From an uncultured Pseudomonadota bacterium (GTDB lineage Bacteria > Pseudomonadota > Gammaproteobacteria > Ga0077536), in contig CACJXQ010000007.1 of assembly GCA_902597385.1 (NCBI GenBank), positions 4,272 through 68,271 of the forward strand: a DNA stretch of 64,000 bases, given 5' to 3'. Made by a program: the position numbers and the translations under genes. The notes below the pieces were generated by a model. That model did no database searches. It was not told where the DNA came from and saw only the letters and a list, made by a program, of their open reading frames with translations. The stretch's first letter is position 1. The number at the start of each line of letters is the position of its first letter. Shown here one piece after another: positions 59,280-64,000 of this stretch.

Positions 59280-59801
59280 TTATTGGTCAACCTCCAAATT
59301 GAGCCTCCGAAGGAATTTTGTTATTTCTTTGGTTAGTAACTCATTTCCTCCCGCCATAGCAGCAGCTTTCCTCGAGAAAGCAGATGCTTGCAACTCGTCT
59401 CCTCTTTCTACGGCAACATAAGCTAATTGCGTCCAAAGATAGGGGTCATTCGGCTGTATTCTAATAGCTCTTTCGATATTTGCCTGCGCTTTAATGTAAT
59501 CCTTAATTCTCAAAGCATCTATAGCTTTGTACAGTAATTCTCTACAAGCAGCGTCAATTTTTCGGGAAGCCCCACTAACAGATTGTGGGTCGAAGAAACT
59601 TTTACGAGCAATGACATCTTTCTCTGATTGAAGCCAAAATATTTTTCCTATGGCAACAGAATCATCAGGTGGTGAAAGAAACACCTTCCGCTCTACTTCT
59701 CTGTTCGACAAAACCTCCTCTCGTTGATTTTGCAAAACCTGGAGGGAGCAGGAAGATAGAAGGGGTATTACTAAGATTATTGTAAGAAATCTCTCAACCA
59801 C
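59280..59801 (-). CDS. TPR-repeat outer-membrane lipoprotein, LpoP-like (candidate PBP1B activator)
   Basis: 173 aa with a GTG start and the lipobox LLSSC. The C-terminal half has TPR-like repeats (YIKAQANIERAIRIQPNDPYLWTQLAYVAVERGD). It overlaps the 3' end of the PBP1B gene by 25 nt. Confidence 0.55.
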   Translation of the reverse strand: MVERFLTIILVIPLLSSCSLQVLQNQREEVLSNREVERKVFLSPPDDSVAIGKIFWLQSEKDVIARKSFFDPQSVSGASRKIDAACRELLYKAIDALRIKDYIKAQANIERAIRIQPNDPYLWTQLAYVAVERGDELQASAFSRKAAAMAGGNELLTKEITKFLRRLNLEVDQ

Positions 59802-62110
59802 CTTATGAGACCTCCTTCCCTTACTCGTTTATAGGAACTACCCTTTCGAAGCCGTGGATTTGAAGGCCTCACACTACTTAGGCAACTTTTAGAAGTTGGA
59901 ACTTTAGTTGCAACATGGAAGGGCAAATGGTCTGCGCCTGGACAACTTTGTGGCACCTGTTTACCTGCCGCAATGTTCATATGTCGGTAGATAATTCCAG
60001 GAGGATTTTCAAATACCAATGGTTTAATTTCTGAAAATCGCATAAAGTCGCTCCAGACCCTCAAAGCCCCACTGCTACCTGTTAAGCCCGTGGGTTGATT
60101 ATCGTCTCGTCCCACCCAGACTCCCCCTAGTCGGTTGTTACCGAAACCGACGAACCAACTATCCCTGTTATCGTCAGAGGTGCCAGTTTTTCCTGCAATA
60201 GGGAACGTATCGAATGTATGCTTTAAAGATTTTCCAGTGCCTTGCTCTATAACTTGCGTTAACGCATAGCGGACCAAACTGGAGGTAGCTGGATCGATTG
60301 CTGGCTTTAGTTTAAGTGGGTAGCGCTTTAAAATTTCATCACCGCTCGATGTAACTTCTCGAATAGCTCGCAGTGGAATTTTAAATCCATTATTGGCAAA
60401 GACCGTATACATTTCAGTCAATTCAAGCGGACTTAACTCAATAGCGCCTAGGAGAATGGAGGGATATTCCTCTAATATCTCCAAACCTCCCAACTTTTTT
60501 AGGTATTCTGTGATCTTTGGCACACCGATACTAGCGCCAAGATTAACAGTGGCCAAGTTTTGCGAATAAACCAGACTATCTAGCAGAGAAATTTCTCCTT
60601 TCTCTTTCTCATCAAAGTTCTGGGGACTCCAAATTGTTCCATCTTCTAGTTCCCAATCTACTTCAGTATCCTTCAAGGTTGTTGCCAGAGAAAATCTATT
60701 AGCCTCAGAAAGGGCCAAGGCGTATATAAAAGGTTTAATCATTGAACCAACTTGTCTCTTAGCTTTTAAAGCCCGATTAAACCCGCCGGGCGCTAGTCTT
60801 AACCCTCCAGACAAGGTCAGTATCTCTCCTGTTCTGGGGTCAATAACCACGCTAGCAACCTGGAGCACTCCTTCCGTTCCTAATTCCTTTTCTATTCTAT
60901 TCAGTGTCGCAGCTACCGACTTTGTCACTTTGTTGTGAAAGTATAAATCCAATGAAGTATGGATCTTTAATCCGGCGTTTCTTATCGCCTCTTGGTCATA
61001 CTGTTTTTTTAATTGGATTTTCACCAGATCGAGAAAAGCGGTCAGCTCCCCAACACCTCTAAATTGCGAACCCTTGACGTCAAGCGGAAGTTGTACGAAT
61101 TCTTCTCTTCTAGCCTTTGATATCAACCCTTGTTTCTCCATCACACCTAGAACAAAATTCCGCCTCTTAAGGCTACGCTCCGGTGATGTCCTCGGGTTAA
61201 ATGCTGAGGGCCCTTTCAGCATACCGACCAAAGAAGCTATGGCCGGCACATCCAATTCTTGCAGGGGCTTTCCGAAATAAAATTGGGAAGCTAAACCAAA
61301 ACCATGAATTGCCCTATTCCCGTCTTGTCCGAGAAAAATCTCATTAGCGTAAACCTCTAATATCTGTTCTTTTGAAAAGCGTAGTTCTATCGAAAGGGCC
61401 ATTAAAAGCTCAGTTATTTTGCGCCTAATTGTCCTCTCTCGGGTAAGGTAAAAATTTTTCGCCAATTGTTGAGTAAGCGTACTACCTCCCTGAACATACG
61501 CTCTTGCCCTAACATTAGATATTATTGCTCGTACCAAACCAGTAAAATCGAAACCGTGGTGCGTAAAAAACCTACGATCTTCAACCGCGACAAGAGTATC
61601 TATGAGAATCGTGGGGAGCTGATTATAATCGAGGAGGATCCTATCCTCATAGGTTTTTGGGTTTATCGAGCCGATGATTACTGGCTCAGTTCGGGTTAGA
61701 TTAACGTTTTTGCCACTATCCATAGACCAAACTTGTTTAATTTCGGATCCCGAAAAAAGAACTTTCAGTCTTTGACTATACTCTACCGAATCCCAAAATT
61801 TATACCCTCTAGCATAATATTCCACCTCTTCCCCATTTTGACTAAACTCGCCAGGGCGACGAACTGTTTCTACTGAGGAATAACCCAGCATCTCGAGCTC
61901 GTAAACTAAACGACGGGGTGATAGCGAGGCACTAGAATATAATTCTAAGGGGCGTGCGTATATTTTAGCAGGCAAAGTCCATGAGGCAAATTCAAATGTG
62001 TCGTAAACTTTTTTGTCAAGCCATGCCCAGTAAGCCAGGAATCCTAGCAAGCACCATAGCGCGAGGTGTCTCAACAAGCGAAAAACTCTACTGACAATGC
62101 CTGATTTCAA
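59777..62110 (-). CDS. mrcB: Penicillin-binding protein 1B (bifunctional glycosyltransferase/transpeptidase)
   Basis: 777 aa with an N-terminal TM helix. The GT51 motifs are VAVEDRRFFTHHGFD and GGSTLTQQLAKN. The transpeptidase motifs are SMIKPF (SxxK), SQN and KTGT. Confidence 0.92.
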   Translation of the reverse strand: MKSGIVSRVFRLLRHLALWCLLGFLAYWAWLDKKVYDTFEFASWTLPAKIYARPLELYSSASLSPRRLVYELEMLGYSSVETVRRPGEFSQNGEEVEYYARGYKFWDSVEYSQRLKVLFSGSEIKQVWSMDSGKNVNLTRTEPVIIGSINPKTYEDRILLDYNQLPTILIDTLVAVEDRRFFTHHGFDFTGLVRAIISNVRARAYVQGGSTLTQQLAKNFYLTRERTIRRKITELLMALSIELRFSKEQILEVYANEIFLGQDGNRAIHGFGLASQFYFGKPLQELDVPAIASLVGMLKGPSAFNPRTSPERSLKRRNFVLGVMEKQGLISKARREEFVQLPLDVKGSQFRGVGELTAFLDLVKIQLKKQYDQEAIRNAGLKIHTSLDLYFHNKVTKSVAATLNRIEKELGTEGVLQVASVVIDPRTGEILTLSGGLRLAPGGFNRALKAKRQVGSMIKPFIYALALSEANRFSLATTLKDTEVDWELEDGTIWSPQNFDEKEKGEISLLDSLVYSQNLATVNLGASIGVPKITEYLKKLGGLEILEEYPSILLGAIELSPLELTEMYTVFANNGFKIPLRAIREVTSSGDEILKRYPLKLKPAIDPATSSLVRYALTQVIEQGTGKSLKHTFDTFPIAGKTGTSDDNRDSWFVGFGNNRLGGVWVGRDDNQPTGLTGSSGALRVWSDFMRFSEIKPLVFENPPGIIYRHMNIAAGKQVPQSCPGADHLPFHVATKVPTSKSCLSSVRPSNPRLRKGSSYKRVREGGLIRWLRDFLQ

Positions 62111-62240: not shown

Positions 62241-62272
62241 TAGAGAAAAGCTCGGGTTCCCTGTTCCCGAGC
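62241..62272 (-). terminator. Candidate Rho-independent terminator downstream of the Lys-repeat gene
   Basis: On the minus strand, GCTCGGG-AACAGGGAA-CCCGAGC forms a 7-bp stem with a 9-nt loop, followed by TTTTCTCTA. Confidence 0.45.
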
Positions 62273-62391
62273 CTTTCAAATACCGTACTTATTGCGCTTT
62301 TCAGCGGCATCTCTTCGACTTTCTAATTTTCGCCTAACTGACTTCGCAATATCCAACAGTCTCGACGAAATTTCAGCTTCTAGAGAATTTT

Positions 62392-62592
62392 CTACTTTTT
62401 TCTAGCAGGCCTTTTCTTAGCTACTTTCTTCTTAGCTACTTTCTTCTTAGCTACCTTTTTCTTAGCTACCTTATTCTTGGCTGCTTTTTTCTTAGCTACT
62501 TTCTTCTTAGCTACTTTGTTCTTAGCTACTTTATTCTTAGCTACCTTTTTCTTAGCTACTTTTTTCTTAGCTACTTTTTTCTTAGCTACCAT
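62392..62592 (-). CDS. Small lysine/alanine-rich repeat protein (histone H1-like, putative nucleic-acid binding)
   Basis: 66 aa: M + 12 x (V/A)AK(K/N)K + RPARKK. A GGGGGA Shine-Dalgarno-like element lies about 10 nt upstream of the ATG. The frame is maintained across all twelve 15-bp units. Confidence 0.6.
   Translation of the reverse strand: MVAKKKVAKKKVAKKKVAKNKVAKNKVAKKKVAKKKAAKNKVAKKKVAKKKVAKKKVAKKRPARKK
62416..62592 (-). repeat. 15-bp tandem repeat array (about 12 units) inside the coding sequence
   Basis: On the plus strand, the unit CTTAGCTAC(T/C)TT(N)TT is repeated head-to-tail from 62416. Variation is mostly at the K/N codon third position and one V-to-A unit. Confidence 0.9.
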
Positions 62593-62763
62593 TTTTTTCT
62601 AATCCCCCATGGATAAAAGTTGGTGAAAATTCTTAAATGCTAAATTCTGGTTATCTTTATATACAGTACTCATCGTCGATCTTCAATAAGGATATGCTTT
62701 TTTTTTATACATCGTAAAAAGATTACGAGTTTCACAACTCAACGGAATGAAACCACCTCGCGA

Positions 62764-63411
62764 CTAACTTAACAAGGAAAATATTTTTAATTTAATATCA
62801 TTGACATCGCCAACACCATTGATTTGTGTAAACGAAGCTCCTACATTTGCATCGGCATACTTTGTATACCAATTAACCAACGGTTTTGTTTGCTTCTGAT
62901 AAACTGAAAGTCGTTTTCTAACAGTAGCTTCCTGATCGTCATCTCGTTGAGTCAAAGGTTCTCCAGTTAAATCGTCTAAACCTACTTTTCTCGGAGGATT
63001 ATAAACTGAATGATAAGTTCTGCCGGAAGGTGGATGCACCCATCTGCCAGACATGCGTTGAACTATCTCCTCATCATCTACTCTAATTTCTATTATCAAG
63101 TCTAAGTCAATTTTAGCAGCGGCCAAACCTTCGGCTTGAGCAATGGTTCTAGGAAATCCGTCCAGTAGGAAGCCTTTTTTACAGTCCTGGTCTTGCACCC
63201 TCTCTCGCACCAACCCTAAAATGATGTCATCTGAAACAAGGTCTCCAGCATCCATAACCGTCTTAGCTGCCTTACCCAATTTAGTCCCAGCATTAACAGC
63301 TGCTCTTAACATGTCGCCGGTTGAAATCTTAGGAATTTGCAAATAGTCGCATACGTAGTCTCCTTGTGTTCCCTTACCCGCTCCCGGACCACCTAAAAGT
63401 ACAATCCGCAT
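62764..63411 (-). CDS. adk: Adenylate kinase
   Basis: 215 aa. [25 protein letters not shown] and the LID region match Adk. Confidence 0.96.
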
Positions 63412-63519
63412 TCAAACCTCCTACTTTTAATTTCAAAAAAATTTGACGACCGTATTTCAAAGGCCTCATTATTAGAAGATATAGAATCAGAAGCAAATAA
63501 TCCAGGTCCCGTTAAGATA

Positions 63520-63876
63520 GTGACTGAACAAAAAACAGATACGGCTAACAAACAAATTCAATCCTATGACTCGCTTGGGCTCTCTATCGATGGCAGTTAT
63601 ACTCAATTTCCATGCTTAATCTTCGGCACAGTAATAAGGACTGATATTTTACCTTTGAAGTTTGAGTTATTTAACGACGAGCATTTGAATATTCTAGAAC
63701 GACTATCTCCCGAGCTCATATTAGTTGGAACCGGCACTCATCAACAGTTCCCAAAGCCTCAACAAGTAAGCTCCCAGCGCGCTATCGAATTTATGGATAC
63801 TGGTTCAGCTTGCCGGGTGTTTAATATTCTGACAGCAGAAGACAGGCATGTTCTTGCGGCCCTATTTCCTGCGTAA
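63520..63876 (+). CDS. Mth938-like / DUF498 domain protein
   Basis: 118 aa with a GTG start. PELILVGTGTHQQF and IEFMDTGSACRVFNILTAEDRHVLAAL fit my recollection of the Mth938/Xcc1710-like family. Confidence 0.7.
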   Translation: MTEQKTDTANKQIQSYDSLGLSIDGSYTQFPCLIFGTVIRTDILPLKFELFNDEHLNILERLSPELILVGTGTHQQFPKPQQVSSQRAIEFMDTGSACRVFNILTAEDRHVLAALFPA

Positions 63877-63880
63877 TGAT

Positions 63881-64000
63881 TCAACCTCCGCTTGGCAAAT
63901 ATAACTTTGGATTGACTGCCTTCCCGTTACGCCTAATCTCAAAATAAAGCATAACGGATTTGCTATCTGTGGACCCCATCCTTGCGATCTCTTGCTTGGG
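63881..64000 (-). CDS. nlpD: C-terminal 39 codons of an NlpD-like LytM-domain protein (5' part outside the window)
   Basis: My own translation reads PKQEIARMGSTDSKSVMLYFEIRRNGKAVNPKLYLPSGG*. It parallels the E. coli NlpD C-terminus ([34 protein letters not shown]). Confidence 0.6.
   Translation of the reverse strand, partial: PKQEIARMGSTDSKSVMLYFEIRRNGKAVNPKLYLPSGG

Follow-up and report, generated by a model that had tools for sequence, protein, structure and literature searches.

Between adk and mrcB of an uncultured gammaproteobacterium lies an ORF of 66 codons that consists of twelve VAKKK-type pentapeptides, which raises the question whether this is a real gene and what is made from it. 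The window, the whole stretch of 64,000 nucleotides that was analysed, comes from a MAG of 1.86 Mb that is 73% complete. The ATG-initiated ORF on the minus strand reads exactly as the sequence-only reading had written it, with the product M(VAKKK)3(VAKNK)2(VAKKK)2(AAKNK)(VAKKK)3(VAKKR)PARKK. The protein contains 34 lysines and two arginines and has a net charge of +36. The near-perfect 15-bp tandem array proposed in that reading was confirmed with Tandem Repeats Finder (15-bp unit, 11.9 copies, 90% matches, score 279), and the gene was indeed found with adk upstream and mrcB downstream on the same strand. The ribosome-binding site that had been considered plausible was also supported, as GGGGGA is kept across all genus relatives; ACGGGGGA is present 9-10 nt upstream of the ATG in G000, G001, G002, G003 and G004. 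The features of the locus are listed in Table 1.

Table 1. Coordinates of the lysine-repeat gene, its putative recoding signals and its neighbours in the window.
Feature	Position	Strand	Remarks
mrcB/PBP1B	59777-62110	minus	downstream of the repeat ORF; class-A PBP with UB2H domain, PBP1B type
Intrinsic terminator hairpin with U-tract	62245-62277	minus	starts at the TGA of the extension frame
-1 frame extension, 39 codons (VENSLEAEISSRLLDIAKSVRRKLESRRDAAEKRNKYGI)	62279-62395	minus	stop TGA at 62276-62278
Zero-frame CDS, 66-aa lysine-repeat protein	62392-62592	minus	including TAG stop at 62392-62394
Slippery heptamer A_AAA_AAG, in phase (AGA AAA AAG)	62395-62401	minus	zero-frame TAG directly after
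15-bp tandem array encoding VAKKK pentapeptides	62412-62589	minus	Tandem Repeats Finder and codon-by-codon listing
RBS GGGGGA, Shine-Dalgarno-like	62603-62608	minus	10 nt before the ATG
Candidate promoter TTGAAG, 17 nt, TATATA	62658-62686	minus	in the spacer between adk and the ORF; sequence reading
adk	62764-63411	minus	upstream of the repeat ORF; Pfam ADK 1.4e-52

The adk loci of 40 relatives were fetched and scanned mechanically for a lysine-rich ORF. Nearly all relatives from the same family had such an ORF at the same position between adk and mrcB, and the order adk, K-rich ORF, mrcB was found in 17 of the family loci sampled and also in three neighbouring families. The orthologues start with M(A/V)xAKKK, range in length from 25 to about 150 aa and come from genomes with a GC content of 37-63%. 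Within the genus (G001-G004) the repeat units vary mainly at synonymous third positions (GTA/GTC/GTT, GCT/GCC/GCA, AAA/AAG). The number of units, which the sequence-only reading had suggested comparing across related genomes, differs between the species of the genus, with 12 in G000, 20 in G004 and at least 30 in G001. The near-identity of the 15-bp units and the assemblies that break within the array would also fit a non-coding microsatellite-like element in which the ORF is fortuitous. However, the ATG, the frame, the RBS and the Lys/Ala/Val periodicity are preserved throughout the family with different codon choices and many synonymous differences, and both alternative frames of the array are stopped in every unit. 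Relatives that carry the array in frames that break the ORF, named beforehand as the sign of such an element, were looked for among these loci and none was found. Since frame, start, RBS and repeat character are kept in positional orthologues despite the wide range of GC content, the conservation pattern indicates that the 66-aa ORF is a real gene and not a microsatellite, and a fortuitous ORF is extremely improbable.

The array breaks the contigs of G003 and G001, and in G002 a scaffold gap is located there. A TARA Oceans scaffold that is 92% identical to the window over 13.5 kb ends inside the array. Contig ends in the array were observed in many MAGs and in this TARA scaffold (ends of L010, L135 and L141; starts of L134, L017, L106, L111, L119, L128 and L131). 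As contigs end inside the array, repeat numbers taken from short-read assemblies are lower bounds only, and the gene may be split between contigs. The best named matches of adk were 63-65% and labelled Spongiibacteraceae, and they were found without shared synteny.

In the spacer between adk and the ORF, TTGAAG and TATATA separated by 17 nt were read as a promoter candidate with low confidence. This block is conserved also in the genus relative G002; a consensus promoter scan made no call at its position. Further upstream the lineages differ in their gene content. In the larger family members rpoS is located directly upstream of adk, and in the streamlined genus an nlpD-like LysM/M23 gene is found there (63412-64000 of the window; flank in L002 and L003). 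A close rpoS orthologue was sought in G000, G002, G003 and G004 and none was found, the best matches being rpoD-like with 43-44% identity; rpoS may thus have been lost in the streamlined genus.

The end of the repeat ORF, A_AAA_AAG_TAG, has the form of a dnaX-type -1 slippery heptamer with an immediate stop. The -1 frame opens from the G of AAG, and the predicted fusion product is 105 aa long. We searched all 81 family genomes for the downstream domain with a six-frame profile search and, after removal of one spurious match (G063), found it once each in 39 genomes from 8 genera, the finished genomes G022 and G090 of larger-genome relatives included. An in-phase heptamer was present at the end of the K-rich ORF in all 39 domain-bearing genomes, and the domain was always in the -1 frame directly behind it. 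The heptamer was A_AAA_AAG in 38 genomes and A_AAA_AAC in the finished genome G022, and a zero-frame stop followed directly in 38 of the 39. All five genus genomes and the TARA contig have kept both heptamer and stop. Among nine K-rich orthologues that lack the domain (eight from family genomes and one, G039, from the neighbouring family f16) none had an in-phase heptamer. The Arg codon preceding AAA AAG was CGA or AGA in 18 of 18 cases, and elsewhere in these ORFs 24% of the Arg codons end in A; as the relatives are not independent, no p-value is given for this. The description of the product as consisting almost purely of repeats was thus not sustained, as a conserved -1 slippery site and a conserved helical extension were found at the end of the gene. 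We consider it probable that this histone-H1-tail-like polycation is made as two isoforms of 66 and 105 aa by programmed -1 frameshifting.

Two features of dnaX-type genes, a conserved in-phase X_XXY_YYZ heptamer and a -1 frame that lacks a start codon and is under protein-level selection, were found here. For the 277 pairs of the long set the median dN/dS of the extension (Nei-Gojobori) was 0.15; within the genus, where synonymous divergence reaches saturation, values of 0.13-0.33 were obtained for the pairs in which dS was not saturated. In six genus-level sequences the extension frame was the only open one, the other two frames having 1-6 stops each. Judged from these substitution and reading-frame patterns, the downstream -1 frame is under purifying selection. 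Assembly error as the cause of the frame break is excluded, as the break is found in many varied independent assemblies, single-contig genomes among them, and as the A run has a length of 6, 7 or 8 and is always in the same phase.

Only a few codons separate the heptamer from the point at which the extension frame becomes open. No ATG, GTG or TTG is conserved in any alignment column of the extension. There is no such codon at all in the extension frame of the genus member G003 or of G089, and in 12 genomes the first one comes after the most conserved block. These findings bear on whether the downstream frame could instead be an independent tiny gene with its own non-canonical start. Gene callers report fragments of the domain as proteins of 37-67 aa in a few metagenomes, and TTG or GTG is present at alignment column 19 in some genomes, as an independent gene would have it. 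However, the residues upstream of every candidate start are conserved, and relative to the K-rich ORF the domain is in every case shifted by -1 at the heptamer. Together with the lack of a shared start codon this makes an independent gene very improbable.

The sequence-only reading had also placed a hairpin terminator downstream of the ORF. The hairpin itself was well supported, with a folding energy of -24.9 kcal/mol and z = -3.5 (0 of 200 shuffles folded as well). It is not located directly after the 66-aa ORF but about 115 nt past its stop, the gap is filled by the -1 frame, and the foot of the hairpin shares bases with the TGA that ends the extension. The stems of the window and of the 92%-identical TARA contig (L141) differ by a compensatory change (G-C to A-U), which supports a functional hairpin.

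Slippage by the ribosome and slippage by RNA polymerase with insertion of one A would give the same two proteins, so the two are not separable by sequence alone. The classical ribosomal site, known from dnaX and many IS elements, has A6, a run on the short side for RNA polymerase to slip efficiently. At the junctions, the run was A6 at the window and 18 other sites, A8 (AAA AAA AAG) at 17 of 36 sites and A7 at one. The A8 runs would suit polymerase slippage, and so would the junctions of two other families (f15 and f204), which fit it better, the run there being A9 and the domain lying in the +1 frame. The sites that have only A6 (NGA AAA AAG) and the conserved phase of the run with its A-ending Arg codon argue against it. 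With the run of the window being A6, we favour a ribosomal slip, and transcriptional slippage appears unlikely as the source of the two products.

A stimulator of the putative ribosomal slip was sought on both sides of the heptamer. RNAalifold gave no supported conserved structure in the 80 nt downstream of the heptamer, either in the GC-rich set or in the genus. A specific upstream Shine-Dalgarno-like stimulator was not identified, the AAGG strings found 9-11 nt upstream being ordinary Lys-Lys-Ala/Val codons. Synonymous sites were more conserved in the first 16 codons of the extension (pS 0.42) than later (about 0.70), and in GC-rich genomes the 12 nt after the zero-frame stop are nearly invariant, so an RNA-level signal may exist. 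The adjacent stop codon and a slowing of the ribosome on the preceding poly-lysine, A-rich stretch are plausible stimulators. Internal in-phase heptamers were also counted (18 in 36 ORFs); this is roughly the number expected from codon frequency, and avoidance is not demonstrable at this count.

The domain in the -1 frame has 65-71 aa in relatives with larger genomes and 37-41 aa in the genus of the window. The long form has the invariant residues W56, E57, Y60, D61, K63 and H64 in the motif ...AEVRARLAARKEAARLRKAEQTKRAAMKRAV..F.RKWEREYDRKH. The extension of the genus corresponds to the first half only, and the KWEREYDRKH motif is absent from it. A profile of the long form alone gave matches below significance on the genus genomes. 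Profile-profile comparison with hhalign aligned the genus form with the long form at a probability of 80% and an E-value of 1.5e-5, collinear from the frameshift site (residues 8-36 against 9-37). Together with its position and its M(A/V)xAKKK start, this extension homology places the window gene in an adk-mrcB family of K-rich repeats with a KWEREYDRK helix.

As the extension has been shortened in the genus and the KWEREYDRKH motif is gone, it could be on its way to loss. Taken further, only the 66-aa protein would be made in the streamlined genus, and the -1 frame would be a relic of a domain that was once fused by frameshifting. The shortening, the many family genomes without an extension and the lack of a stimulatory structure in the RNAalifold analysis are in line with this. 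It is at odds with the heptamer and stop retained throughout the genus and in the TARA contig, with the low dN/dS there, with the extension being the sole open frame in six sequences of AT-rich, stop-dense genomes, and with an extension stop that abuts the terminator. We therefore regard a relic as improbable, and production of both isoforms remains the preferred reading.

A class-wide six-frame search for the helix domain in other families gave two further arrangements of the gene. In two other families (L154 of G178 and L159 of G358) repeats and helix form one continuous ORF between adk and mrcB. These in-frame orthologues (L154:1171-1677, plus strand, 169 aa; L159:1285-1761, plus strand, 159 aa) have the helix motif KWE(R)(D/E)Y(D/N)RK and received no family assignment from Pfam or NCBIfam. 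In families f15 and f204 (L152, L155 and L158; near 1448-1464 of the oriented loci) the junction carries the A9 run, and the helix lies in the +1 frame and has no start codon. At this junction the same two-product gene may exist in a form that depends on transcriptional slippage. We also observed larger Lys/Ala-rich proteins that combine an A..F..KW motif with a short K-rich N-terminus and are encoded 1-2 kb downstream of adk in MAGs of Spongiibacteraceae, Pseudohongiella and Bermanella (L033:4412-4999, L036:3539-4612, L086:4871-5590). The one from Pseudohongiella passes the Pfam HC2 cut-off (41.1 bits). These proteins may be distant relatives of the K-rich/helix family.

The extension was modelled as one long helix, with a pLDDT of 88 for the 67-aa long form and 93 for the 39-aa form of the window. 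The helical hydrophobic moment of the window's extension was not significantly above that of shuffles, so an amphipathic helix or coiled coil is not claimed for the genus. In the long form the invariant W/E/Y/D/K/H cluster points to a specific interaction surface, a part that the genus lacks. No match to the extension was found in Pfam and NCBIfam, nor in a PDB sequence search and a Foldseek search with the single-helix model, and the ESM Atlas was not informative either. When 1.84 billion representative proteins were searched with a profile of the extension, four matched, all of them short fragments; the domain is thus essentially unannotated. The 66-aa ORF and the domain of an in-frame orthologue were also used as queries in a word-indexed homology search and had no match, probably due to low complexity.

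The resemblance to histone H1 tails and bacterial H1-like proteins that had been proposed from the sequence holds for composition but not for family membership. On the repeat protein Pfam HC2 (PF07382) scored 20.5 bits against a cut-off of 40, NCBIfam NF038052 (Hc2/HctB) 11.5 bits against 135 and NF038053 (Burkholderiales BpH1-type) 12.6 bits against 80. With all these scores below the cut-offs, the protein is better described as one that would work like H1-like proteins than as one of them. By analogy, the repeats would be a non-specific polyanion binder with DNA as the most likely target, and the helix would add self-association or partner binding.

In the mechanism that we propose, standard decoding would give the 66-aa protein of almost pure (V/A)AKKK repeats, while a fraction of the ribosomes would slip back by one base on the two Lys codons of A_AAA_AAG and bypass the TAG. 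These ribosomes would append the 39-residue charged alpha-helix and end just before the terminator, giving the 105-aa isoform. The repeats of both forms would bind nucleoid DNA, or possibly RNA or polyphosphate. Through the self-association or partner binding of its helix, the long form could bridge or cluster targets that the short form would only coat, and the efficiency of frameshifting would set the ratio of short to long form. The short form seems to be sufficient alone, as a K-rich gene that lacks the extension is present in about half of the family genomes (genera g10, g6, g4 and others). The sequence-only reading, which described a single product, was to this extent incomplete, the gene being very probably a recoded one with two products.

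Outside mobile elements and phages, conserved programmed frameshifts are known from few genes of bacteria, the main ones being dnaX, prfB, copA and csoS2. A full-text literature search gave no account of frameshifting in histone-like or lysine-rich bacterial genes, and no frameshift gene of this kind was found in the GeneTack survey or in part of a 2016 recoding review. It is likely that a family-wide conserved dnaX-type -1 frameshift in an H1-tail-like gene sets the ratio of a bare polycation to a helix-bearing, probably self-associating form, and that related families have arrived at three solutions for the junction: one continuous frame, a -1 shift at A_AAA_AAG, or an A9 run leading into the +1 frame. 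If this is true, these families form a natural series for how recoding arises at lysine-repeat genes. With 39 genomes from 8 genera the phylogenetic case is clean, and the in-frame orthologues are a natural control. The gene raises the question of how a -1 site works when a stop adjoins it, no RNA stimulator is obvious and a long poly-lysine, A-rich stretch precedes it, and also that of the role of a bacterial H1-tail-like polycation with and without an added helix. For annotation, it is relevant that gene callers give no more than the short ORF or pieces of the extension, and that short-read MAGs break inside the array.

Among known systems, Hc2 (HctB) of Chlamydia and BpH1 of Bordetella and Burkholderia are similar to the repeat protein in having consecutive lysine-rich pentamers with Ala, Val or Thr in variable number. 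In Hc2 the number of pentamers varies between strains or species and the frame is kept (PMC2848022). Hc2 and BpH1 are 165-237 aa long in comparison to 66 or 105 aa here, they have two basic residues per pentamer instead of three, and their genomic context is different. A helical C-terminus encoded by frameshifting, as predicted here, has not been described for either of them. Chlamydia Hc1 and the Pseudomonas proteins PhaF and AlgP resemble the long isoform, as they combine a structured or oligomerising domain with a disordered Lys/Ala-rich tail, and the long isoform would likewise pair a helical module with a polycationic low-complexity region for nucleic acids or polyphosphate. The KPAA tail of PhaF binds DNA or RNA (PMC12818456), and AlgP, with its KPAA tail, is located on polyphosphate granules (PMC9239181). 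The order is reversed in these proteins: here the tail is N-terminal and the helix C-terminal, and the two parts would be joined by recoding rather than in one frame. There is also no sequence similarity, and the repeat is VAKKK instead of KPAA; the 66-aa protein contains no KPAA tetrapeptide, its repeat is (V/A)AK(K/N)K, and Pro is present only in the terminal PARKK. Streptomyces DdbA, in which an H1-like domain is fused to a DksA-like domain (PMC3643593), is similar in that it likewise joins a second functional module to a lysine-rich H1-like segment. In our gene the second module is a single charged helix without the DksA/TraR zinc finger, and the lineage is different.

The closest parallel for the recoding is E. 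coli dnaX with its tau and gamma products, the A_AAA_AAG site being a known -1 frameshift site of the dnaX type (PMC3711429, PMC4344849). Both have the same in-phase heptamer in a chromosomal, non-mobile gene, and the two products of dnaX share their N-terminus, as the two predicted here would. In dnaX an SD-like element upstream of the site and a hairpin downstream of it stimulate the shift, whereas here no conserved structure was detected and a stop directly follows the heptamer. The shift in dnaX truncates the protein, whereas the shift proposed here would extend it.
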